Assembly: GCA_022564195.1 (NCBI GenBank)
Contig: JADFLW010000001.1
Location: 711 to 64,710, forward strand
Direction of reading: 5' to 3'
Source: Patescibacteria group bacterium
GTDB taxonomy: Bacteria > Patescibacteriota > Microgenomatia > UBA1400 > Chisholmbacteraceae
Length of the DNA: 64,000 nt
Under the pieces are notes generated by a model, which was given only the letters and a program-made list of their open reading frames with translations, ran no database searches and had not been told where the DNA came from. The position numbers and the translations under genes are program-made. This document shows positions 1-30,575 of this stretch, piece after piece (the first letter of the stretch is position 1; every line of letters begins with the position of its first letter).

Positions 1-1
1 T

Positions 2-1705
2 GTTCCCGAGAAGGATCGGGAGACTCCATACTACGATGAAATCCTGCGCAGTGTCTACGCCAATAATGCCGGAAACTGGGGTTCGCACAAGCTCAACGCA
101 ACCTGTACGGATCGGTCAAGAGATTTAGATCAGTTCAGCTTTGAGTCACGCTATGAGATTGATCTGCTGTCGGCGGCAGATGTTTCTGTACGCGAAGGTG
201 AAACCTTAGATAGAGAAAAGATTAAAGAACTTGAGGAGAATGTGTATGCTCTGGCAAGAGAAATGGAAGAGCAGGGGTTTGACAGCGAAAAAGCGAAGGA
301 AGCATTGGCTTCAGAGGTGGAGGAGAAACTCAGGACGGTTCAGGAGCGAGGTGGGTTGACAGGCGTTGATCTTGAGAAAATCACGAGCACTGAAGAACGC
401 TTGTTTTTGTTGCTGGTGGATGCTGTCTATGGGGAGGGGAGCATTGATACTGCTGACTTGAAGCGGTTGGTTATCCGATACGAATTCGCGTATTTTGAGG
501 ATATACGTGATTATATCGAAGGAACAAATGATCGAGTGGGGAGAGCCCGAAACCCTGACTACGGGCTCTTGACTGAGCTTCACAGTTTTTACTCAGACAG
601 AATAAAAGAAGTAAATCGAGGCCTAGTACGAGCAGCATTGGAAAATCCTGAAGTCGCTAAGACTTTTCCTCAATACTTTGAGCAGCTTTCTAAAGACGCT
701 GCCATACAGAAAAGAAAGGAAATTATGAGTCGTCAACGTGTGGACAGGTTGGGGATGAGTGATAGTTTTATAGAACAAATCAGGAGATCATTGAGAGGGA
801 AAACGGGTCGAGACTATACTCCTGAATACGTGAGGCGGCTTATCGCAAGGTATGAGTCGTCAACCGGAGGATTGCGGGAGAAAACAACAGTTTCCAAAAA
901 GAAACGAACAAAAGCATTTTACGGCCAGCTCCGGGCTCAGCGGGAGAAAACGTTTCGGGTCATGCAGGAGCTTACTGGCGAGGAGGTGGATCCTCAGGAC
1001 GTTCATCTTGATGAAATTAACCTTGCAGAGCTTATTGAGGGGCAGGTCAGCATCGAAAAAGGAAGGTATGACGAAGAGCAGTTTGCTTCTTATACCGTGC
1101 AGCGGTTTTTGAATGTGTTTGCTGATGAGCGGGAGGCGATTGAGAGCCAGTTGGATAAATTTAAGACTGCCTCTGGGAAGGGGCGGGAGGTTCTGAATGC
1201 GTATTTCACCAAATCCAAAGAGAGCGCCAATGCGCGGATGGTAGGGGGAGTTTGTGTGGCTGGAGACAACCCCGATAGATCGGGAAGAAAGAATATGTGG
1301 GACATGGAGAACTACTTTCAACTGGTGTTCCAGGATCCTGAAACCTACCGCTGCCAAGGGCTGGTGCTTTTGCACCATTTTACCGATGATGAAGGAAAGA
1401 GGATTCTTGCGGCATCACTCAACCCTTCCAGCACCTACGTCTTGTCGGTAGATGAAGAGGCATTGTTTGCTGGCATCATGGGCCTGTTGGTGGAATTTAC
1501 GGAGGGAAACGAGTTTGACATGATTGTTACATCTTCGAATAGAACGATTCGCACCAACAGAACCGGAGGCGCGTTTGAGAAGGCAATTGAGGAGCGGATT
1601 CGAAAGATCGGAAAGGAGTACCGGTTTGCAGAACCCAAGCGTTTCTCTTTCCAAAACCAGTATCATCTCCAAGAGATGGATGTGGTTTGGGAGAAGGGAG
1701 AGTAG
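2..1705 (+). CDS. hypothetical protein, 5' partial (frame open to window start)
   Basis: ORF track 242..1705; same frame has no stop back to nt 2; stop TAG 1703-1705; no recognisable motif. Confidence 0.55.
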   Translation, partial: VPEKDRETPYYDEILRSVYANNAGNWGSHKLNATCTDRSRDLDQFSFESRYEIDLLSAADVSVREGETLDREKIKELEENVYALAREMEEQGFDSEKAKEALASEVEEKLRTVQERGGLTGVDLEKITSTEERLFLLLVDAVYGEGSIDTADLKRLVIRYEFAYFEDIRDYIEGTNDRVGRARNPDYGLLTELHSFYSDRIKEVNRGLVRAALENPEVAKTFPQYFEQLSKDAAIQKRKEIMSRQRVDRLGMSDSFIEQIRRSLRGKTGRDYTPEYVRRLIARYESSTGGLREKTTVSKKKRTKAFYGQLRAQREKTFRVMQELTGEEVDPQDVHLDEINLAELIEGQVSIEKGRYDEEQFASYTVQRFLNVFADEREAIESQLDKFKTASGKGREVLNAYFTKSKESANARMVGGVCVAGDNPDRSGRKNMWDMENYFQLVFQDPETYRCQGLVLLHHFTDDEGKRILAASLNPSSTYVLSVDEEALFAGIMGLLVEFTEGNEFDMIVTSSNRTIRTNRTGGAFEKAIEERIRKIGKEYRFAEPKRFSFQNQYHLQEMDVVWEKGE

Positions 1706-3051: not shown

Positions 3052-3234
3052 ATGGCGGATGATAGTGGACAGGAGGCAAAGGAAAAGGATCCGGTTGAGG
3101 TGATACGGTCTTCGCTGAATAAGGCGTTGGGGTTTTTAAAACAGCTCTTGGGACAGGAGGAGCGGGAGCTGAAAGAGGAAATGGAAGAAGTCGAAAGGGC
3201 TGGTTCTTCTAAGCAGAATCCCACTTCAGACTAG
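3052..3234 (+). CDS. hypothetical small protein (60 aa)
   Basis: ORF track only. Confidence 0.3.
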   Translation: MADDSGQEAKEKDPVEVIRSSLNKALGFLKQLLGQEERELKEEMEEVERAGSSKQNPTSD

Positions 3235-3345
3235 AACTTTCTCTTGTAACTTTCTTCTTGTCAGCAATGCGGCTGCAGTGTGAAGAAGAAGAGTTGGATT
3301 GTGTGGGATTTCTTCAGAGCGATGGGTGTGGAGATTGGCAGGGTA

Positions 3346-3798
3346 CTAGGGAGCACCCTGCTGTTGAGGTGGTTGATACGACGGAGGGGGTTGGCCGTGG
3401 ACTTCCATTGAGAGAGCCTTGAGTTCGGCTCGGATTTTTTCAATTTCCGCTTGGGTTTCCATCTGTCTTTGTTTGAGCGCTTTCTCGTCAAAGAGGATTT
3501 CCTCTTCCTTTTCTTTGATTTCCTCAAGCTCTTTGAAAAGTTCTTCCTTTTCCTTCTTTTTTTCTTCTTCCTCGTGAACTTCCTGTTCGGCTTCCGCCTC
3601 TGCCTCGGCGATGATTTCGAGTGCTTTTTTAATGAGCTTGATGGCGCGGGAGATCTCGGTTTTGGCGGTCAAGCTATGGTGAAGCCGTTCTCGTTGCTCG
3701 GAGGTAAGCTTGGGAAGAAGGCTGTGCCAGTGGTCCTTGTCTTCATCGCTGAGGGGGGATTTGTTGATAGCATCGAGTAAGGCTTGATCTTCGATCAT
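3346..3798 (-). CDS. hypothetical coiled-coil protein, Glu/Lys-rich
   Basis: ORF track; low-complexity EK-rich heptad-like sequence. Confidence 0.5.
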   Translation of the reverse strand: MIEDQALLDAINKSPLSDEDKDHWHSLLPKLTSEQRERLHHSLTAKTEISRAIKLIKKALEIIAEAEAEAEQEVHEEEEKKKEKEELFKELEEIKEKEEEILFDEKALKQRQMETQAEIEKIRAELKALSMEVHGQPPPSYQPPQQQGAP

Positions 3799-3871
3799 GG
3801 CTCAATGATAACATTCTCCAGTTGCTTGTGGCTACTTGTTCGAGAGTAGTGCATTCGAAATGGGAGAAGTG

Positions 3872-5338
3872 TCAAACCCACTCTGGTGGCTTGAGTTTCA
3901 TGTCGTGGAGTATTGCTCGCGTCACTTTTTCTCTATCGTCTCCAACAACTATCATTCCATGACCTCCTAATTCAATTACTAAGACTTTTCCACGTAGTGG
4001 ATCTTCAGGGGGACCTGGATTTTGAAGCGCCTCAGAAAGCCAAAGTCCGGAGGCGGTGGCGTTTGCTGCGTCTAAAGAACCGCAAGCAAAATCGATATCT
4101 GTCGGATAGTATCTTGGGTCTGGGCGGACGACTTCGACATGGTCTGGGTCATAGTCTTCAAGATGCCAATGGGAGTGGTCGACGACTGTGATCATAGGGA
4201 TGAGCCCTTCCGGTACAATGTCAGCTGCTCCGTTCGTTGAGAATTGCTCTGTTAGCCAGCGCTCCGCCTCTGGAAAGTTTGTCGCGATTCTTCCCAGCGC
4301 GAGCGCGGCGTTCAAGATGATTTTCCCAGCCTCGAATGTTTCAACAGAGCCATTTTTGTATTTCTTTACTATACCTCCTCGCGGTTTTACTACAGCATAT
4401 CCATCTTGGGTGATTTGCATAACTGGGACCAAATGGCCATCACGAGGATCATCGCTTACTTCAACTTTCCCCCCGCCGCTCACGGTGACGCCCATCACCC
4501 GAAGATGTTCATCGAATTGCGCTCTCATACTTTCTCCAAGACTTTTATTCAATGCTTTTTCTATTGATTTAACATGGTCAAAGTCTTCATAGTATTCAGT
4601 TAATTTAACTGCGTTTTGGATGACACCTGCTTCTCCCAATGCCCATGCTGCTTCCGCTGTTTCACGATGGATGGGAGAGAGTTGCCATGTTTCCCAAGTG
4701 AGCCGTTCTGGTACTCCGCCATCGTGCCTTTCCGTTACATACGTTGTCCCGTAATGGGCGAGAATACGTCGGATAACATCCTCTAGGATCTCTTGATGTG
4801 GTTTTCTAATTTCCGCATAGTTTCCTTGCATGCTGGCCCAGAGAGCTCCTGAAACAGTATTCCCGCTGTCGCGACCCTCGAAGACTACGCCGTTGTTACA
4901 CGCTCCAGCAACGAGCTGTCTTCTTGCAATATGGAAATCCACAGGAGGGAGGTGATCGACCGTGTTCACAAGCAAGAATGGGGGTTTTGGAGCCGGCAAC
5001 CTCATGTACACTCCTACTGAGCCTATTCGCGCATCGATCTTCCCGTCGCCGAACATCATAACCATATCAGGACGCTTCTCCACTGGAGTCCTTCTATTTG
5101 GGAGCGGTCGTTGACTGCCTCCAATCGCATCACTTGTGAGTATTGTGCTTAATTGTTGGAAGACTTTTTCTTGGAGAGGTGTAGAGTGGCCAATTCCAAC
5201 TGCAAAGTCAATTGGCTTTGGATGCCAGATGTATGGTTCTGTCTCTGCTCTCCGGCGCAGTAATGGGACGAGCTGATCGGCAGGGAGGTGCCAATTGATG
5301 CTTTCGCCCCAGTATGGTTGTGGAGCGTCTTTTACCAT
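3872..5338 (-). CDS. hypothetical protein (488 aa), no confident family assignment
   Basis: ORF track; long ORF with typical composition. Confidence 0.6.
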   Translation of the reverse strand: MVKDAPQPYWGESINWHLPADQLVPLLRRRAETEPYIWHPKPIDFAVGIGHSTPLQEKVFQQLSTILTSDAIGGSQRPLPNRRTPVEKRPDMVMMFGDGKIDARIGSVGVYMRLPAPKPPFLLVNTVDHLPPVDFHIARRQLVAGACNNGVVFEGRDSGNTVSGALWASMQGNYAEIRKPHQEILEDVIRRILAHYGTTYVTERHDGGVPERLTWETWQLSPIHRETAEAAWALGEAGVIQNAVKLTEYYEDFDHVKSIEKALNKSLGESMRAQFDEHLRVMGVTVSGGGKVEVSDDPRDGHLVPVMQITQDGYAVVKPRGGIVKKYKNGSVETFEAGKIILNAALALGRIATNFPEAERWLTEQFSTNGAADIVPEGLIPMITVVDHSHWHLEDYDPDHVEVVRPDPRYYPTDIDFACGSLDAANATASGLWLSEALQNPGPPEDPLRGKVLVIELGGHGMIVVGDDREKVTRAILHDMKLKPPEWV

Positions 5339-5531
5339 GTACTTTTCATATCAGAATTATGCAGGTTTGGCAAGAAGTATCTTAAGGTCTTTGAAGGTCG
5401 GAGCTGAAAGGGTTGCGGCTTTTACTTCAGAATTTCCGCAAGTGTAGATGGCATCTCTTCATTGCTTACACCGCGTGCTATAATTGATCTCTATAATATT
5501 CAAATAGTCAAGTAGGAGAAGGTGAATATCT

Positions 5532-5849
5532 ATGCAGGTTGAAAAAGGACAACTTAAATCCATCCTCACTGGCGAGTTAGGCTACAGTGAAGTTGATGCC
5601 GAAGTTTATGCAGGCCAATATCCAGAACTTCATGAGACTCTTAGGGTTCCTATGGAGCAGTGGCTCGAAGATAGAACATTCGAGGATGTGAAGGTAGATG
5701 GTGTTTCTTTAAAGGAAGTTATGGAGGTTCATGGCAGTAACTTTGTGCAAGCTACTAGACAATTAAACGATTTGTTAGTTAAACCCTTGAGTGATGGGGA
5801 CAGACAGGTTCTCGTTGATTATTTGCAAAATCCACCTATCTATGAATAG
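5532..5849 (+). CDS. hypothetical protein (105 aa)
   Basis: ORF track; strong SD AGGAGAAGGTG 8 nt upstream of ATG. Confidence 0.55.
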   Translation: MQVEKGQLKSILTGELGYSEVDAEVYAGQYPELHETLRVPMEQWLEDRTFEDVKVDGVSLKEVMEVHGSNFVQATRQLNDLLVKPLSDGDRQVLVDYLQNPPIYE

Positions 5850-5924: not shown

Positions 5925-6761
5925 TCACGTCTTTTGGAATTCGGAGAGCTCTACTTTTACTCCCGGAGACATCGTGCTTGCTAATGTTAATTTCTTGATG
6001 CGTTTGGTGTCGACGGCGGTGACTAAGGCTTTGAGGTTCTCCGTGAGCTTCTTGGTATCGAGCGAGGTTTTTCCGATCACAACGTGCATGAGCGGCGCTT
6101 TGCCTTCGGTTTTGACCTGGGTGGTTCCGGATTCGAGCTCCTTCTTTCGCTTTTTCGGATCGTCGGTGACGGTGCCAGTTTTGGGGTTGGGCATGAGTCC
6201 CATCGGCCCCAAGATTTTTGCAACTTTGACGATTTTCTTCATCGTATCTGGTGTGGCGAGAAGCACATCGAAGTCGATCTTTTTTTCCTCGATCTTTTTA
6301 AGCAGCGTATCGGTTGCGATGGCCACTCGTGCTTGTTTTCCGGTGGAGTGGGGGAAGGTGACGTCGGCCGATACTTTCTCCTCGTTGAGATTGAGGTGGG
6401 CTGAGATGGTGCCGTCAAAACGGGCGATTGAGGTTTTTTTGACCAACTCAATGGCCTCATCAATAGGATACGGTTTGGTTCGGTCCACTCTTGAGCGGGC
6501 GAGCTTGTAGCGGCGGCTTCGAACTCGAGGTTTGCGCTCGCGCTTTGGCTCGACTTTTTCCACCTCGGAGGTGTCTTCAGTTTTCACCTCCGAGGTGACT
6601 TTCTCTTCGAGTTCTATGCCTTCAATGGCCTCAGATTTGTCGGCAATGCGGCCGGCTCGTTTGCCGGTTTTGACGGCGGTCTTGGCGGCCCGCTTTTGGC
6701 TGACCTTTTTTTGCTTATCTTTTTGTGACGCGTCGATGACGCTGATGCGTTTTTGACCCAC
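5925..6761 (-). CDS. rplA: 50S ribosomal protein L1 with ~80 aa Lys/Glu-rich N-terminal extension
   Basis: ORF track; L1 core KPYPIDEAIELVKK..FDGTISAHLNL..; GTG start at 6761 preceded by GGAGGTG. Confidence 0.88.
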   Translation of the reverse strand: MGQKRISVIDASQKDKQKKVSQKRAAKTAVKTGKRAGRIADKSEAIEGIELEEKVTSEVKTEDTSEVEKVEPKRERKPRVRSRRYKLARSRVDRTKPYPIDEAIELVKKTSIARFDGTISAHLNLNEEKVSADVTFPHSTGKQARVAIATDTLLKKIEEKKIDFDVLLATPDTMKKIVKVAKILGPMGLMPNPKTGTVTDDPKKRKKELESGTTQVKTEGKAPLMHVVIGKTSLDTKKLTENLKALVTAVDTKRIKKLTLASTMSPGVKVELSEFQKT

Positions 6762-6872
6762 GTTTCACCTCCGGTAATAGACTCAAATGGCAAAACTCAA
6801 ATCGCAAAACCACATCTCAAATCTGAATAACTTTTAGTTTTGAATTGCAGTTTTGACTTTTGAACTTTTCGT

Positions 6873-7301
6873 TTAGCTTGCTACTTTTACTCCCATGCTC
6901 TTAGCAGTACCGATAATCGTTTTTATCGCCGCCTCCAAATCAGCGGTGTTTAAATCTTGCATTTTTTCGCGGGCGATTTCTTCCACCTGCTCACCTGTTA
7001 AGGTTCCTACCGTTTCAGACCCGGTGCTGTGGGCGCCCTTCTCGAGCTTCAATTTCTTTTTTATCAATTCCGAAACCGGCGGAAGCTTGGTGACAAAGGT
7101 AAATGATCGGTCTTCGTAGATGGTGACTTCAGCAGGGATGACTTGGCCTCTTTTGTCCTGGGTGGCTTCGTTGTAGGCCTTGCAGAAGTCCATGATGTTG
7201 ACGCCATGCTGGCCCAATGCGGGGCCGACCGGGGGGGCAGGATTTGCCTCTCCGGCTTTGAGGTTGAGTTTGAGGACAATCTTTACCTTTTTTGCTGCCA
7301 T
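6873..7301 (-). CDS. rplK: 50S ribosomal protein L11
   Basis: ORF track; [29 protein letters not shown] motif. Confidence 0.93.
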
Positions 7302-7479
7302 AGTAATTAGCGTTTAAGGTTTAGCGTCTAACGTCAAGGGGAAACGAAGAAAGACAAAAAAGAAGCTTCCTCGCAATCCCAAACTGGTATTGCTCCCTCA
7401 ATCTTCTCTGAGGTTTGAGTTCCAGATCCGCCCGGTTGGCAGGCATTACGCTTGGACGAGGGGATTATAGCAGAAACGG

Positions 7480-7520
7480 TGGGGGAGTGGAGGGTGTTTT
7501 TGGGGATGTTGTGGTAGAAT
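7480..7520 (+). promoter_or_regulatory. candidate promoter with extended -10 (TGgTAGAAT at 7512-7520) for the acidic-protein gene array
   Basis: sequence read; ~80 nt upstream of CDS 7601. Confidence 0.3.
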
Positions 7521-7600
7521 GCGAGTTTAACTGAAGCGCTATTTTTTTGAGAAGGTGAGGGAGTCTGCTAGAAACAGCTGAGAGTGGTGAGTTTTCGAGC

Positions 7601-7966
7601 GTGGACGAGGCGATGGCGGCGTTTAGAGATGCCGCGATCCGCGATGAACAGCTGTTCATCGGAGGTTCCGAGGAATCTACGTACCAGCCGTCTCCGCCTC
7701 CACAGTTCGAACAGATTATGCGGGATAAGGTAAACGCTCAACAGGCAGCGATCGACATGGGGGCGACAGAGGCAGATCTGGTGAGGATAGAACTAGAGAT
7801 CAGAGATGGGCAAGAGCAGCGGATGCTTTTTACCTGGCTGCAGGCGGGAGGTCATCCAAGATTGACCCCTGAAGATATGCAGCAACTGGGAGGGGAGTTT
7901 GGGCTTGAGTGTCTCTCTCCAGAGACGGGGCAGGAATCGATGGACGAGTTTGGGCTGGAAAGGTAA
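7601..7966 (+). CDS. small acidic protein, GATE(A/V)D..FGLE paralog family member 1
   Basis: ORF track; shares MGATEADLVRIELE...FGLE motif with 8033 and 8797 ORFs. Confidence 0.55.
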   Translation: MDEAMAAFRDAAIRDEQLFIGGSEESTYQPSPPPQFEQIMRDKVNAQQAAIDMGATEADLVRIELEIRDGQEQRMLFTWLQAGGHPRLTPEDMQQLGGEFGLECLSPETGQESMDEFGLER

Positions 7967-8032
7967 GTTTTTTGATTTTCCAGGTAGAATATATTGTCCT
8001 ATAAACTAAGTTAAAGGAAGAGGTGAGGAAGG

Positions 8033-8428
8033 ATGGCGAGTCCAATAGAGGGTAGAGAGTTGTCAAATAAAGACGAGGCGTTGGGCGCTTATCGGGATCT
8101 AATAGAAGACGGGACAGTATTGACCGGTTCCTTCAAAGATGGAGAGATTACCGAGGCCGAGTATTATGAGCGTTTCGATGGGATTTTGGAGGCTGCAAGT
8201 ACAATTCTCGATTCGGCGATGCGCATGGGGGCGACAGAGGTTGACATCTTTCGAATCGATCTTGACCTCGCAGGTCAAGAGGCTCAACAGGCACTTTTTT
8301 TGAGCCAACAAATCAGCGGTCTTCCCGGGCTGACTTCTAGCCAGATCGAGGAGCTAAAGCAAGAGTTTGGACTGGAGGATGTGGATCCTGAGCAGAAGGA
8401 GGAACTCGGTGGGTATTTTGAGCTATAA
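8033..8428 (+). CDS. small acidic protein, paralog family member 2
   Basis: ORF track; SD GGAAGAGGTGAGGAAGG; MGATEVDIFRIDLD...EFGLE. Confidence 0.55.
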   Translation: MASPIEGRELSNKDEALGAYRDLIEDGTVLTGSFKDGEITEAEYYERFDGILEAASTILDSAMRMGATEVDIFRIDLDLAGQEAQQALFLSQQISGLPGLTSSQIEELKQEFGLEDVDPEQKEELGGYFEL

Positions 8429-8497
8429 CAGCAATGTGTTTTCGTCCATGTGATACAATACCAACCTATAATATTACTTTAAGAAGGGTGCTGATTT

Positions 8498-8800
8498 ATG
8501 ACAGAAGGCGATGAGGTTGAGCGAGAACCAGTCAATTTAGGGCTAGAAAAGTTACAAGAACATATGGAGCCTGGTGAGATATTCATCACCAATGCGCCAA
8601 GATCTCCAGACCCTCTTATTTCGGAGATTCAAACTGCGGAGCAATTCGCGTATGATCTTGAAGAGGAAGGGAGATATGAGTCGGTTCGGGTGATCGACGC
8701 GGCATTTGGTATAGATGGTGAACCGATGGAAGATGATCAAGCTGTGGTGGCATTTCCCAAGCAAGAGCCAAGTACTTCGGAAGGAGGTGAGGGAGCATGA
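8498..8800 (+). CDS. small acidic hypothetical protein (not obviously in the paralog family)
   Basis: ORF track. Confidence 0.45.
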   Translation: MTEGDEVEREPVNLGLEKLQEHMEPGEIFITNAPRSPDPLISEIQTAEQFAYDLEEEGRYESVRVIDAAFGIDGEPMEDDQAVVAFPKQEPSTSEGGEGA

Positions 8801-9234
8801 GTGGACCAGAGGGGAGTGGTGATTATCCGAGCTTAGACGGGGCGATGGAGGCGATTAGAACTTCTTGGGAAAGTGAACAGCAATTGTCCCAAGCCCATCA
8901 GGACGGAGATATTACTCTTGGTGAATACAGAGAACAAAATCGGGAGATAACACAAGCTCGAGCATATGCTGAAAAGGCTGCTAGAGGCCTAGGAGCAACG
9001 GAGGTTGATCTCTGGGGTGTGACCTTGGAGTCTAAAGAGGATGAGTCGGGTCGGCAACTTCTTTTTGACGTTCTGCAGTTTGAAGGTCATCCAGAGATGG
9101 GTTCCGATGAATTCGGACAGCTGGCTGATCAGTTCGGCCTTGATACTCTGACAGAAGAGAGAAGTCAAGAGATGGAGCAGCAAAGTCAGCAGTGGATCGA
9201 AGAGGAACGGAGAGAAGCGGGGCTGCAGGAGTAG
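8797..9234 (+). CDS. small acidic protein, paralog family member 3
   Basis: ORF track; SD GGAAGGAGGTGAGGG; LGATEVDLWGVTLE...QFGLD; 4-nt overlap with upstream ORF. Confidence 0.55.
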   Translation: MSGPEGSGDYPSLDGAMEAIRTSWESEQQLSQAHQDGDITLGEYREQNREITQARAYAEKAARGLGATEVDLWGVTLESKEDESGRQLLFDVLQFEGHPEMGSDEFGQLADQFGLDTLTEERSQEMEQQSQQWIEEERREAGLQE

Positions 9235-9399
9235 GTCATAGTTCTTACTTGTACGCGGATTTGCGGTGGCAAAAGATTTCTCTACTTGTGTAACGTGAAG
9301 AAATTCGAGTTCCCTTCGACTGCACTTCGACTTCGCTCCCGCCAATACGGCGGGCAGGCAGTGCAAGCTCTCAGGGTAAACGACTGGGATCAACTTCTG

Positions 9400-10089
9400 T
9401 TAGACCTGAGCTACTTGGAGGAGATCTAATTCAACAGGTGTCTCTCGGCCGAAGATGGAGACCAGTACTCGGACTTTGCCTTTGGCGTCGTCGATGGAGT
9501 CGACGGTTCCTAAGAAGTCGGCGAATGGCCCTTCGATGATCTTGACTGGGTCACCGATTGAGAATGCAGCCTTGTATTTGGGTGCCTCCATCTCCGTGAA
9601 CTTCTTGATGGTCCTTACCTCTTCTTGAGAGATGGGCGTGGGTTTGTTGCCTATGCCGACGAAGCCGGTGATTCCTGGAGTGGTGCGTACCGCCAGCCAA
9701 GAATCCTCGTCGAGGATGAGTTTCACGAGAAGGTAACCGGGGAAGATTTTCTCTTTGACTCTGACCTTTTGTCCGCGCTGGATTTTTATTCTCTCTTGGG
9801 TGGGCACGAGCAGTTCATGGATTTTATCCTTCAGCTTCATGCTCTTTACGCGTTGGCGAAGGGTTTCCGTAACCTTGGTTTCGTGGCCGGAGTAGGTATG
9901 GACGACGTACCACTTAGATCGTTTATCATCGGAGCGTTTGAAGACGATATAATTCTTCCCGATATCCGGTTCCTGCTTCTGGCTTTTCTTGGTGGTCTCG
10001 GTTTTTTTTTCTGCCGTTTCTTGCAGCTTTTCTTCTTTGGTATCTTCTTGTTTCTTTTTTGGTTTTTCGGCCTTTTTCTTTTTTGGCAT
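9400..10089 (-). CDS. nusG: transcription termination/antitermination factor NusG with ~55 aa Lys-rich N-terminal extension
   Basis: KWYVVHTYSGHE NGN motif and KOW-like C-terminus (GDPVKIIEGPFADFLGTV); start moved to ATG 10087-10089 (SD GAGAGG) because track start 10182 would overlap secE. Confidence 0.85.
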   Translation of the reverse strand: MPKKKKAEKPKKKQEDTKEEKLQETAEKKTETTKKSQKQEPDIGKNYIVFKRSDDKRSKWYVVHTYSGHETKVTETLRQRVKSMKLKDKIHELLVPTQERIKIQRGQKVRVKEKIFPGYLLVKLILDEDSWLAVRTTPGITGFVGIGNKPTPISQEEVRTIKKFTEMEAPKYKAAFSIGDPVKIIEGPFADFLGTVDSIDDAKGKVRVLVSIFGRETPVELDLLQVAQV

Positions 10090-10120
10090 TGCTTGGTACC
10101 TCTCGAATTTGTACGGGTGT

Positions 10121-10345
10121 TTATCTGAGGAATGTCTCAATGAGCTTCGTGTAGATGAAGTCGAGTCCACCAATGTACGCACCGACAGCCACTGAGACGG
10201 CTAAGACGACCAGTGTCAATTTCAGCGTTTCTGCTCGAGTTGGCCAGCTGACCTTTTTGAGCTCATCAACTGCTTGACGAACAAATTGGATCGGGCCGAC
10301 GTTTTCGAGCGCCGGTTTGGCGATTGAGAAATCAGGTTTCTTCAT
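10121..10345 (-). CDS. secE: preprotein translocase subunit SecE
   Basis: ORF track; 74 aa with single C-terminal TM helix, immediately upstream of nusG. Confidence 0.75.
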   Translation of the reverse strand: MKKPDFSIAKPALENVGPIQFVRQAVDELKKVSWPTRAETLKLTLVVLAVSVAVGAYIGGLDFIYTKLIETFLR

Positions 10346-10607
10346 ACCACTTCGCTAAACCTGCCTAGCCGGCAGGCAAGGCTATCGAGGCACACGTCCT
10401 CCTCCGCTATTGAGCTACGGCGGGACAGTTCAGGGAAGTATTCTATCATAGCAGGAAGGCAGTGTGCAAAGGATGCGACAAACGGTTTGTCCGAGTCAGA
10501 CTCGGTTTGTTGACTTTGTGTGTAAGGGGAGAGTATCATTTTAGAGCGCCTAGCCCTTCGATAGAGCTCAGGGTAAACGTTTAGGGTCTAGCGTCTTGGC
10601 TTCATGT

Positions 10608-11504
10608 ATGGCCTCAAACCAGACCTCTCAAAAGCAACGTGTTCGTAAGGCTGTGATTCCCGCAGCAGGATTCGGTACACGATTTCTGCCGCAGACGAAA
10701 GCGATGCCCAAGGAGATGCTTCCCATTGTTGATAAACCCGTCATTCAATATGTGGTGGATGAGTGTGTGGACTCTGGGATTGAAGACATCATCATCGTCA
10801 CGGGGTACCATAAGCGAAACATCGAAGATCATTTTGATCACAACAGCGAGCTTGAGTATCACTTGGATGTGACGGGGAAAAAGGATCAGCTGAGGATGGT
10901 TTCGGAGATCGCGGAATGTGCAAACTTCGTCTACATTCGGCAGAAAGGGGGGTACGGCAACGGTACCCCTGTTTTGAACTCGGCTCATGTGATTGGAAAT
11001 GAACCGTTTGCAGTTTTGTGGGGAGATGAGTTCATCTTTTCAGACCCCCCTCGATTGAAGCAATGTCTTGATGTTTTTGAGCAGTTCGGGAATCCGGTCA
11101 TTTCTGGGATTCGGATTGAGAAGAAGGAGGACATCTCTCGGTATGGAATTGCGGATTTGGAGCCTATGGAGGGTAACGTTTCCAAATTGCGGCGGATCGT
11201 TGAAAAGCCCGAACCTGACAAGGCGCCTTCTCAGATCGCTGCTCATGGCTGTTATGTGTTGACCCCAGATATTTTTCCGATTTTGGCGACGCTTAAGCCC
11301 GGGAGGGGGGGAGAGATCTGGTTGGTTGATGCGATTGCGCAGCTGTCGCTGCAGCGGGATATCTTAGTCTGCGAAGTTGAGAATGCAAAGTACTACGATA
11401 CGGGGAATAAGCTGGACTACATGAAGGCGGTGGTGGAATTTGGGCTCAGGCATCCGGATATCAATGGGCCCTTCCGGGAGTATTTGAAGGAGTTGAAGTT
11501 GTAG
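10608..11504 (+). CDS. galU: UTP--glucose-1-phosphate uridylyltransferase
   Basis: KAVIPAAGFGTRFLPQTKAMPKEMLPIVDKPVIQYVVDE motif; track start 10596 is TTG, first in-frame ATG at 10608. Confidence 0.85.
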   Translation: MASNQTSQKQRVRKAVIPAAGFGTRFLPQTKAMPKEMLPIVDKPVIQYVVDECVDSGIEDIIIVTGYHKRNIEDHFDHNSELEYHLDVTGKKDQLRMVSEIAECANFVYIRQKGGYGNGTPVLNSAHVIGNEPFAVLWGDEFIFSDPPRLKQCLDVFEQFGNPVISGIRIEKKEDISRYGIADLEPMEGNVSKLRRIVEKPEPDKAPSQIAAHGCYVLTPDIFPILATLKPGRGGEIWLVDAIAQLSLQRDILVCEVENAKYYDTGNKLDYMKAVVEFGLRHPDINGPFREYLKELKL

Positions 11505-11792: not shown

Positions 11793-11864
11793 GCCGTCCT
11801 AGCTCAATGGTAGAGCAACGGTTTTGTAAACCGTAGGTTCCGGGTTCGAGCCCCGGGGACGGCT
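11793..11864 (+). tRNA. tRNA-Thr (anticodon TGT)
   Basis: hand-folded cloverleaf: acceptor GCCGTCC/GGACGGC, anticodon stem ACGGT/ACCGT, loop TTTGTAA, T-loop TTCGAGC. Confidence 0.8.
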
Positions 11865-11892
11865 CCCTTCCGAAAAACTCAGAACTGACTCG

Positions 11893-11974
11893 CTGGGGTG
11901 CCGGAGTGGACAATCGGACGTGTCTGTAAAACACGCGGCGTAAGCCTACGGAGGTTCGAATCCTCCCCCCAGCA
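11893..11974 (+). tRNA. tRNA-Tyr (anticodon GTA), type II with long variable arm
   Basis: hand-folded; anticodon loop CTGTAAA; T-arm GGAGGTTCGAATCCTCC; close to E. coli tRNA-Tyr in layout. Confidence 0.8.
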
Positions 11975-12022
11975 CCTTGATTAATATCATCCTCCAATGA
12001 ACTACCCCCTACATCTCAGGCA

Positions 12023-12693: not shown

Positions 12694-12765
12694 GCCCAGA
12701 TAGTTCAGTGGTAGAATGCCATCTTGGTAAGATGGAGGTCGAGGGTTCGATCCCCTCTCTGGGCT
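12694..12765 (+). tRNA. tRNA-Thr (anticodon GGT)
   Basis: hand-folded; acceptor GCCCAGA/TCTGGGC, anticodon loop TTGGTAA, T-arm GAGGGTTCGATCCCCTC. Confidence 0.8.
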
Positions 12766-12839
12766 CAGAACGCAAGGCAGGCGGGGCACTCCGACGTAAC
12801 GTCGGAGAGGTCGAGGGTTCAAATCCCACCTCAGGCTCT
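12766..12839 (+). other. degenerate tRNA-like fragment: duplicated 3' part of tRNA-Thr(GGT) (variable loop + T-arm + 3' acceptor strand) preceded by a perfect 9-bp-stem hairpin; no matching 5' acceptor strand
   Basis: AGGTCGAGGGTTCAAATCCCACCTCAGGCTC aligns to tRNA-Thr AGGTCGAGGGTTCGATCCCCTCTCTGGGCTC; palindrome CTCCGACGT-A-ACGTCGGAG. Confidence 0.45.
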
Positions 12840-16264: not shown

Positions 16265-16335
16265 AGGCCCGTGATGAAATGGTATCATGAGGGTCTCCAA
16301 AACCCTTCTTCCAGGTTCGAGTCCTGGCGGGCCTG
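16265..16335 (+). tRNA. tRNA-Trp (anticodon CCA)
   Basis: hand-folded: acceptor AGGCCCG/CGGGCCT, D-stem ATGA/TCAT, anticodon stem AGGGT/ACCCT loop CTCCAAA, T-arm CCAGGTTCGAGTCCTGG. Confidence 0.8.
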
Positions 16336-16352
16336 CAAAAAGATTGTAGTGG

Positions 16353-16595
16353 TTGACAGACCTAGTCGTTCGATTTACAATTCTCTACATCAATAGAACA
16401 GGAGATGCCATGGAGCATGAACCACGATCTTTTCCAGAAGGCGAACAACCAATTGAACCGGAAAAAGCAGCCATCCCAGGCATAGAGATTCTCGTTGATG
16501 CAGCAACTGGAATGACGGATCAGCAACGGTCTGAGATTGACTCAGCTCTGGTTACACCCGAAGTGCATGATATTGAAAACCCCTATTCAAGATAG
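16353..16595 (+). CDS. hypothetical small protein
   Basis: ORF track only; start uncertain. Confidence 0.3.
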   Translation: MTDLVVRFTILYINRTGDAMEHEPRSFPEGEQPIEPEKAAIPGIEILVDAATGMTDQQRSEIDSALVTPEVHDIENPYSR

Positions 16596-24417: not shown

Positions 24418-24765
24418 TTATCCTGATTGATCCACGACTATACTAACTCCTTCAGCGAACGCTTCATCTTCACTAAATAGGTCTAAATATTCCTGACGTA
24501 CTTCGGCCGCGACGTCGGATTTCATCCTGATACGCTCCTGAGTTTCTATTTCCATATCTTGCCACATTTTTTCAGCCTCCCACCTTCCGTCCCATAATCT
24601 CCTGAGACCCTGTTTACCACGTTCGCTTAGTTCTCCAAATTGATTTATTTGTGTGGATAAATGGTTATCAAAATATTTTTCAAATCCATAAGGATCTTCT
24701 TGTTCAGCAGGCCCGGCGGGCTCTTCATGAAGATTTTCTCCTAGTTCGTTAGCGTCCATACTCAT
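24418..24765 (-). CDS. hypothetical acidic protein
   Basis: ORF track. Confidence 0.45.
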   Translation of the reverse strand: MSMDANELGENLHEEPAGPAEQEDPYGFEKYFDNHLSTQINQFGELSERGKQGLRRLWDGRWEAEKMWQDMEIETQERIRMKSDVAAEVRQEYLDLFSEDEAFAEGVSIVVDQSG

Positions 24766-25635: not shown

Positions 25636-25959
25636 CTAACCTTCGCTGCTTTCTGAGTGGATGATCTCCATCAGCCGTTCGCTGAGCGGGGGAAGGAATT
25701 CTCCTTCGATGATTTCTGGTTCCTGAGGAGGATTTTCCCATAGCTCAGGATCCCTGGCAATCGCCTCATCGCGACTTTGGACATAGCTCTCTCCCAGTTC
25801 TTCCTTTCTTGTTTCGGCGTAGCCGATTGCTTGTCCTTCTGAAGTTTGCGGCGTCATGCCGCCGTAATGAGAACGCATGGAGTCATCTACCTGTTCGCTT
25901 AACTGTCTGTGGATCTCAAGAGACTCTTGGGAAGATGGAAGTTCTTGATTTGTTGCCAT
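25636..25959 (-). CDS. hypothetical acidic protein
   Basis: ORF track. Confidence 0.45.
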   Translation of the reverse strand: MATNQELPSSQESLEIHRQLSEQVDDSMRSHYGGMTPQTSEGQAIGYAETRKEELGESYVQSRDEAIARDPELWENPPQEPEIIEGEFLPPLSERLMEIIHSESSEG

Positions 25960-30119: not shown

Positions 30120-30266
30120 CGATTTCATCTTCAATGAAAGAGGCGGGAAAGCATTCGCAAACAGAGCAGCCTACCCTCTTGCCCGACGGATTCATCCGTC
30201 TTGAGCACTTTGAGGGAGCCTTGCCCGAGCGGAGAGGCTACAGAAGAAGGAGGTGAAGAAAGAGAA

Positions 30267-30575
30267 ATGACAGAAGAACCTGGACGTGGACCAGATTTTG
30301 ACTCTGATGAGTTCATGGATGGACTGCGAGGGATCGAAGGGCAGTACGCAGAGGACGAGACGTTGTCTCTCGAACAACGTCCACGAGCAGAGTTGGAAGC
30401 TGCGGTGCAGCACGTCGTCCTTTATGCTGATCAACTGCGCGAGGATAGTAGTCTCGGTGAGGCGTTTCAGACAGTTCGAGAGATTCACCCTGAGGAGAGT
30501 GAGTATCTTGAAGGTCTTCTCGGTGAGATGGTCGAGCGGAACGCTTTCAGCGAAGACGAGATTTCTGAGGAGTAG
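30267..30575 (+). CDS. hypothetical acidic protein
   Basis: ATG with SD AGGAGGTG within track ORF 30201..30575. Confidence 0.4.
   Translation: MTEEPGRGPDFDSDEFMDGLRGIEGQYAEDETLSLEQRPRAELEAAVQHVVLYADQLREDSSLGEAFQTVREIHPEESEYLEGLLGEMVERNAFSEDEISEE

Follow-up and report, generated by a model that had tools for sequence, protein, structure and literature searches.

Toxin-immunity arrays – those of the colicin Im7/Im9 type and the orphan immunity clusters of polymorphic toxin systems – consist of small acidic helical proteins encoded by tandem paralogues, whose copy number changes from strain to strain and whose surfaces evolve rapidly. A further class of acidic inhibitors, the DNA mimics (PMC5722371, PMC3439906), includes T7 Ocr, ArdA, Neisseria DMP19 and phage p56: proteins of ~100–150 amino acids (aa) with an isoelectric point (pI) near 4, non-enzymatic and mostly orphans in sequence, which bind basic nucleic-acid-binding proteins. 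Here we consider an array of small acidic proteins encoded on contig JADFLW010000001.1 of a Patescibacteria group bacterium, of which a stretch of 64,000 nucleotides (nt), referred to below as the window, was analysed; coordinates are positions in the window unless another locus is named. Four open reading frames (ORFs) stand on the + strand between rplK and nusG – ORF1 at 7601–7966 (probably from 7565), ORF2 at 8033–8428, ORF3 at 8498–8800 and ORF4 at 8797–9234 – exactly where an earlier reading of the DNA (the sequence-only reading) had placed them. Three of the four belong to a single family of paralogues. What the family does is a more delicate matter, and the account that we favour – that these acidic proteins are binders or decoys, forming an accessory family specific to the lineage and housed in a permissive hot-spot – is advanced tentatively, at somewhat less than even confidence.

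That ORF1, ORF2 and ORF4 are true paralogues is evident from pairwise BLASTP comparisons (E values of 1e-16, 1e-13 and 5e-13; 31–34% identity over 109–122 residues), and the paralogy suspected in the sequence-only reading is thus upheld by alignment statistics. The shared motif on which that suspicion rested, (M/L)GATE(A/V)D...LF..LQ..G.P......FGL(E/D), is present as described, but the homology is full-length and not confined to a C-terminal module: it reaches an N-terminal D-x-A-x-x-A-x-R motif in all three proteins, and ORF2 and ORF4 also share a 'DG(D/E)IT..EY' turn. Across five family members – these three and two relatives introduced below – the only invariant columns are A, G, D, F, G, P, L and F. 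The invariant residues are helix caps and core positions, with no catalytic constellation; an enzyme is unlikely because the conserved positions are glycine, proline, hydrophobic residues and one aspartate. Identity at codon position 2 exceeds that at position 3 in all ten pairs of the five members (for example 62% versus 42%), which indicates long-term selection on the protein and shows that the genes are real.

The acidity of the array is as extreme as had been proposed. ORF1 (121 aa from the GTG at 7601) has a pI of 4.14, ORF2 (131 aa) and ORF3 (100 aa) of 4.05, and ORF4 (145 aa) of 4.16, with net charges of −16 to −23 across the four, whereas the median pI of the window is 8.9; of the 77 ORFs considered for this comparison the four rank among the five most acidic. 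Other small and very acidic ORFs (pI 4.05–4.3) occur in the window, at 16353–16595 (+), 24418–24765 (−), 25636–25959 (−) and 30201–30575 (+), and are not detected by the family hidden Markov model (HMM; best E 5.5). An AlphaFold2 model of ORF4, built on a five-sequence alignment (predicted local distance difference test, pLDDT, 88.6; predicted template modelling score, pTM, 0.75), comprises six helices, at residues 13–35, 41–64, 69–78, 83–96, 103–113 and 120–141, and the family is accordingly predicted to adopt an all-helical fold.

The family is lineage-restricted and very narrow in its distribution. When 5.8 billion clusters were searched by word index, only the organism's own proteins came back; an exhaustive HMMER search of 1.84 billion representatives added two genuine relatives, P0005 (151 aa, E 3.5e-27) and P0009 (101 aa, E 3.1e-4), and a repeat search with the five-member profile found nothing new. 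Matches to P0006 (a tetratricopeptide-repeat kinase), P0007, P0008 and P0010 were rejected on inspection of their sequences as false positives inflated by many weak repeats. Beyond three loci that are ~99.9% identical to the window (L001–L003), relatives occur only in L004 and L005: the broad search with an HMM of the paralogues, as earlier suggested, thus led to two other contigs, and in both the relative stands beside nusG. P0005 comes from L004, a sister strain with NusG and SecE proteins 100% identical to those of the window, in which its gene is a fifth one and stands precisely between those of ORF3 and ORF4; in the L004 assembly a frameshift divides ORF1. The more distant L005 (NusG 80% identical) has one copy only, P0009, whose gene runs convergently to nusG and overlaps the 3′ end of the latter, stop included, by 14 nt; rplK lies 2.9 kb from P0009, beyond three unrelated genes that have no homologues in the window. 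Every known family member, then, adjoins nusG. The family HMM detected no further copy in the 64-kb window or in 160 other fetched loci, no relatives were found in JGI metagenome contigs or IMG/VR with a three-sequence alignment, and tblastn found none in GenBank phages or PLSDB plasmids. At NCBI, ORF4 appears under 'Patescibacteria group bacterium' as hypothetical protein IH980_00065, and the same genes are called in public assemblies of the same organism.

Loci anchored on NusG were taken from GTDB genomes and metagenomes and the distance between nusG and rplK was measured. Where NusG is at least 55% identical to that of the window the two genes are contiguous (≤150 bp) in 15 loci, and in the other 8 of the 23, about one third, they are separated by 0.9–3.6 kb or rplK is missing within at least 1 kb; at a NusG identity of ~50–52% the junction is contiguous in all loci examined. 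The 15 close loci and the more distant relatives agree with the claim that the block breaks a normally contiguous junction. An uninterrupted junction in relatives, which the sequence-only reading had proposed to check for, is found in most of them, but the interruption is not unique to this organism: around a third of related Microgenomates carry unrelated insertions at the same place. The cargo varies by locus – a protein with a twin-arginine translocation (TAT) signal, membrane proteins or lipoproteins, a beta-lactamase-like protein and several orphans – and includes no member of the acidic family in those other relatives. The nusG–rplK junction is, therefore, a recurrent insertion hot-spot in this clade. 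In E. coli secE-nusG is transcribed separately from rplKA, and an insertion between two such units need disturb neither. Our search of the literature found no account of a nusG–rplK interruption in Patescibacteria.

Two features of these comparisons may be recorded alongside. The TAT-type cargo of L008 (6519–7403, −) and L095 (2253–2966, −) has the twin-arginine-like signal RR(D/G)FLK.GGAG and is encoded on the opposite strand; it represents a distinct cargo family found repeatedly at the nusG–rplK junction. Ribosomal clusters in the clade are broken at varying junctions: in L010 nusG and rplK are contiguous and it is rplK and rplA that are split, by 4.6 kb (6848–11457) of DNA holding, as judged by eye, YraN-like, ComM/Mg-chelatase-like, DprA-like and other genes.

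The relationship among the paralogues extends to their translation starts. A unit formed by the Shine-Dalgarno (SD) sequence and start, GGTGAGGGAGnATG, is common to the paralogues and reads GGTGAGGGAGTCTG in ORF1. The SD block ahead of ORF1, AGAAGGTGAGGGAG (7550–7563, +), is homologous to those of ORF4 (8782–8795) and ORF2 (8020–8031), as revealed by direct repeats, pattern search and DNA alignment; the SD of ORF2, GAGGTGAGGAAGG, is strong, and the pattern search agrees with the earlier view that the array ORFs are well provided with such sites. Homology of ORF1 continues 5′ of the GTG at 7601, with DNA 7550–7627 being 76% identical to 8782–8859. The reading frame stays open back to 7559, a CTG stands at 7565 in place of the ancestral ATG, and the open frame upstream encodes ESGEFSSVDEA, almost identical to the N-terminus of the paralogue P0005. 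Given this upstream homology ORF1 either starts at CTG 7565 or has been shortened to begin at GTG 7601; the start probably lies at the upstream CTG. Gene callers applied to the public assemblies begin ORF1 at ATG 7613, giving a protein of 117 aa.

The array is fast-evolving and its copy number differs between strains. Compared with L004, the ratio of nonsynonymous to synonymous changes is 4/0 in ORF2, 4/1 in ORF3 and 13.5/4.5 in ORF4 (dN/dS 0.8–1.1). Over the same comparison nusG shows 12 synonymous changes and no amino-acid change, so that a dN/dS of ~1 in the array stands against a value of ~0.05 given for nusG. Pooling ORF2, ORF3 and ORF4 gives 21.5/5.5, versus 5/15 for the flanking nusG, secE and NTP-transferase genes (Fisher p = 2.5e-4). 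The change in copy number took place at a junction set by the shared SD-start sequence, and this indicates unequal homologous recombination.

How might such an array have arisen, and to what end? We envisage a single ancestral gene, convergent to the 3′ end of nusG and encoding a small cytosolic acidic protein that was all-helical, which unequal recombination at the conserved SD-start sequence would have multiplied, in this lineage, into three or four tandem paralogues; the unrelated acidic ORF3 would have joined the array. The proteins may act stoichiometrically, their variable and highly negative surfaces binding, sequestering or masking basic partner proteins, a mode of action that would resemble those of DNA-mimic inhibitors and toxin-immunity proteins. 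The position would reflect a recombination-tolerant gap between two separately transcribed units, rather than a role in transcription or translation. What leads us to binders or decoys is the combination of extreme charge, the lack of catalytic-type residues, a conserved core with a variable surface, amplification of paralogues, and gains, losses and frameshifts at the level of strains; from these we infer the mechanism and the nature of the partner.

Several observations weigh on the other side. No toxin-like gene adjoins the array: its neighbours are rplK and nusG, and the nearby ORFs have no toxin-domain matches. The predicted structure shows no similarity to solved immunity or DNA-mimic proteins (Foldseek best E 0.7), and PADLOC and PHROG profiles gave no match. 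That all known members lie beside nusG could have its cause in function and not in common descent. A dN/dS of ~1, moreover, is also expected under relaxed constraint or early decay, and the counts on which it is based are small.

Of the competing explanations, the one that fares best takes the constant company of nusG at face value. The acidic proteins would then be lineage-specific accessory factors of transcription and translation – chaperones, anti-factors or regulators – that partner the Lys-rich extensions of NusG (and L1) or the stalk base of L11. All lineages with the family (the window species with L001–L003, L004 and L005) have it directly convergent to nusG. The nusG gene that bounds the array on the right (9400–10086, − strand, convergent with the array) encodes a protein with an N-terminal extension (~45 aa) that is Lys-rich in the window and likewise in L005 (nusG at 3125–3805 of that locus); the extensions of NusG in sister Microgenomates are acidic or neutral, and in L007, L009, L015 and L018 long and acidic. 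The L1 protein here has a basic N-terminal extension of ~75 aa, and the opposite charges of these extensions and the array proteins are complementary. Yet basic extension and family co-occur in two related lineages only, and since the genomes with the family form one narrow clade the synteny may stem from a single insertion. Factors of the core machinery would be expected to evolve under purifying selection, whereas the array shows a dN/dS of ~1, changes in copy number and frameshifts between strains; and in other Microgenomates it is unrelated genes that occupy this gap. We consider this explanation unlikely, and the family probably does not belong among the core factors of transcription or translation. 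A bolder form of the same idea holds the acidic proteins to be dedicated partners in trans of the Lys-rich NusG (and L1) extensions found in just this lineage; in sister lineages NusG carries acidic extensions in cis. The family would then form a novel class of bacterial proteins, encoded next to their client, that serve by matched charge as chaperones or regulators of the machinery coupling transcription to translation. This strikes us as distinctly improbable; were it true, it would bear on how bacteria of the Candidate Phyla Radiation (CPR) modify their core transcription–translation factors.

It might instead be supposed that the genes have little or no function at present, and are remnants under relaxed constraint or in decay, a filler that duplicated selfishly within a tolerant intergenic gap. 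The recent dN/dS of ~1 fits such a view, as do the loss of the ATG of ORF1 (now CTG 7565), the frameshifts in ORF1 of L004 and in ORF3 of L001 and L003, and the presence or absence of one paralogue between strains. Decay sits poorly, however, with the protein-level constraint seen in every one of the ten pairs of family members (position 2 above position 3), with retention of the motif as far as L005, where NusG is 80% identical, and with intact SDs, ORFs intact in four assemblies and a confidently predicted fold. Some 1.6 kb has, furthermore, been kept in a small and streamlined genome. On this evidence we hold functionless filler to be quite unlikely.

A mobile origin – cargo of a mobile element or of a prophage remnant, such as genes for anti-defence or anti-restriction functions inserted between nusG and rplK – has some appeal, for small acidic orphans in variable arrays are typical of phage early and anti-defence regions, and the array lies on the opposite strand with its own predicted promoters at a recurrent insertion site. 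No integrase, flanking direct repeat or border tRNA was found, however; the GC content (0.46–0.54) matches that of the flanks; GenBank phages, PLSDB plasmids, IMG/VR and PHROGs hold no relatives; and there is no match to the fold in BFVD. Origin as such cargo appears improbable.

As to known families, ORF1, ORF2 and ORF4 reached no curated cut-off in Pfam, NCBIfam, PHROGs or PADLOC, and a Foldseek search with the ORF4 model gave no match in the PDB (best E 0.7) and none in BFVD; with these databases and the PDB taken together no well-known family is matched. The sequence-only reading had assigned the family no function. In Pfam the DUF1707 SHOCT-like family (PF08044) scored 18.5 bits with ORF4 (E 0.0021) and 14.3 bits with ORF2 (E 0.042). 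The likeness resides in an N-terminal helix-turn-helix with 'DG-x-IT-x-x-EY' in ORF2 and ORF4, but the matches involve two of the five members and the motif is degenerate in ORF1 and P0009; membership was rejected, the best score falling below the gathering score of 27.6. Also rejected was a flexible acidic tail of the GFGLFD type found in the ribosomal P-stalk proteins of eukaryotes and archaea (P1/P2, aP1; Ribosomal_60s): FGL(E/D) ends helix 5 in an ordered part of the model (pLDDT >90) and not in a tail, and there is no Pfam match.

A profile search of PDB sequences placed EF-hand proteins in the five best positions, all over the same region (profile positions 75–121, E 0.016–0.26), with an alignment that reads F-x-x-(F/L)-...G-x-(G/P)-x-(I/L)-T-x-x-(E/D)-hydrophobic...EFG(V/L)E. 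The C-terminal module of the family has in common with EF-hands (for example the regulatory domain of a calcium-dependent protein kinase, CDPK, 2aao) a local helix-loop-helix and a trailing 'EFG(L/V)E'. The loop of an EF-hand has 12 residues, of which 1, 3, 5 and 12 provide oxygen ligands and the sixth is Gly; in the C-terminal module, by contrast, position 1 is Q/R, position 3 variable and position 5 H/R/L/F, and Gly6 is an invariant Pro, and in the N-terminal motif positions 1 and 3 are Q/H, G/F or R/Y. That the family consists of divergent EF-hand or SHOCT-type helix-loop-helix proteins, acting as calmodulin-like acidic sensors of Ca2+ or other cations, is very improbable: calmodulin-like size, acidity and helicity, the PDB matches (best E 0.016) and the weak DUF1707 matches of ORF2 and ORF4 on 'DG(D/E)IT..EY' speak for it, but the Ca ligand positions 1, 3 and 5 are unconserved, Gly6 is replaced by Pro, all scores lie below curated thresholds, and the EF-hand was rejected on comparison with calmodulin (hhalign probability 0.9%), with no Pfam EF-hand at E ≤ 10 and none among the Foldseek matches in the PDB.

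ORF3 stands apart from its neighbours. It aligns poorly with ORF1, ORF2 and ORF4 and was rejected as a family member on that ground; its stop overlaps the start of ORF4 (ATGA). Residues 21–61 align with profile positions 21–63 of 70 of DUF2249 (PF10006), at a sub-threshold 24.2 bits (cut-off 29.5; E 3.1e-5), and P0011, a cluster 95% identical to ORF3, carries a precomputed PF10006 match. No homologues of ORF3 were found from which a profile could be built; the single-sequence AlphaFold2 model is poor (pLDDT 59.5) and a fold search with it gave no useful match. In strains L001 and L003 the protein is cut to 71 aa by changes at 8702–8718, where two substitutions and two small deletions within 17 bp shift the frame. 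This cluster is the sole difference within the array between the window and these two strains, and could be a real hot-spot or an artefact of assembly.

The array may also be largely independent in its expression. An extended −10 motif, TGNTAHAAT, occurs at 21 sites in the window against 3.1 expected, mostly upstream of genes and tRNAs (for example at 5476, 7464 (−), 8451, 11551, 12621 and 15844), and looks like the organism's main promoter signature. Two extended −10-like sites stand back-to-back between rplK and ORF1: TGCTATAAT (7464–7472, −), one of the 21, ~160 nt upstream of rplK and a putative promoter of that gene, and TGGTAGAAT (7512–7520, +), upstream of ORF1. The latter had been singled out in the sequence-only reading as a candidate promoter, a role that fits the enriched motif; the same TAGAAT variant precedes secE at 10440–10448 (−). 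Upstream of ORF2 is a weaker −10-like site that lacks the TG, AGGTAGAAT (7983–7991, +), a candidate read from the sequence, and ahead of ORF3 stands TGATACAAT (8451–8459, +), which fits the enriched motif perfectly. Judged by these sites and by the ORF3–ORF4 overlap, the array seems to be transcribed on its own, in two or three units that diverge from rplK and converge on nusG. A search of 6700–10400 against Rfam at a permissive threshold returned nothing, and hence no known leader or small RNA on either strand; a terminator scan gave nothing convincing. Between the convergent ORF4 and nusG lies a segment of 21 bp (9338–9358) containing the GC-rich hairpin CCCGCC-AATAC-GGCGGG, which is precisely missing in the otherwise near-identical L001 and L002. 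The ORF4–nusG spacer folds no better than shuffled sequence (z = −0.64), and to assign the hairpin a role as terminator would be a guess.

The surroundings of the array are those of a ribosomal protein cluster. On the left flank rplK (6873–7301, −; a 142-aa ORF) encodes ribosomal protein L11, identified by a match to Pfam Ribosomal_L11_N/L11 of the identical gene in L001 and by tblastn identities of 57–67% to L11 of relatives; rplA (5925–6761, −) encodes L1. On the right secE (10121–10345, −) accompanies nusG. The nearest NusG proteins in GTDB genomes (64–69% identity) come from Microgenomates (Gottesmanbacteria, Daviesbacteria, UBA1449). The cluster is broken a second time, between rplA and rplJ, by three orphan genes (3346–5849) without Pfam matches: one of 150 aa that is coiled-coil-like (3346–3798, −), one of 488 aa (3872–5338, −) and an acidic one of 105 aa and pI 4.4 (5532–5849, +), with TGCTATAAT at 5476–5484. 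A 65-aa ORF (10342–10539, −) overlaps the start of secE and is a gene in public assemblies, with no Pfam match; TGATAGAAT, at 10440–10448 (−), lies inside it, so that the assignment of either the ORF or the promoter is doubtful. At the beginning of the window (1–1705, +; 1–2929 in L001) lies the C-terminal portion of a giant protein that exceeds 1,573 aa and has no Pfam domains; its ORF ends just ahead of rplL on the opposite strand. Genes for tRNA-Thr(TGT), tRNA-Tyr, tRNA-Thr(GGT) and tRNA-Trp (11793–11976, 12694–12766 and 16265–16336) and rpmG (~13.2 kb) are dispersed over the region upstream of secE, on the opposite strand, and the usual compact tRNA-Trp/rpmG–secE–nusG arrangement is not seen. 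A gene for a ParE-family toxin, at ~17.0–17.3 kb, is ~8 kb from the array and not linked to it.

The significance of these findings is best considered at two levels. The better supported and more general is that of the junction: in Microgenomates lineage-specific genes have repeatedly landed between nusG and rplK, which makes this gap a convenient place to seek accessory functions in organisms where half of the genes are unknown. At the level of the family, orphan families are common in CPR genomes, and a specialist will not be very surprised to meet one more. If the proteins are indeed binders or decoys, a further orphan family, with a fold unmatched in the PDB and BFVD, would be added to the few acidic proteins of inhibitor type, and such arrays would be seen to exist, and to turn over rapidly, in streamlined CPR genomes.

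Comparison with described systems brings out both the distance and the resemblance. From the DNA mimics the array proteins differ in having no similarity to them in sequence or fold, and in being encoded by a paralogous array on the chromosome of a CPR bacterium; they match them in size (121–145 aa), in pI (4.05–4.16) and in charge (−16 to −23). From immunity arrays the locus differs in that no cognate toxin gene stands beside it and no immunity family in Pfam, PADLOC or the PDB is matched, but it shares with them the arrangement as tandem paralogues, the variation at the level of strains and the fast pace of evolution.

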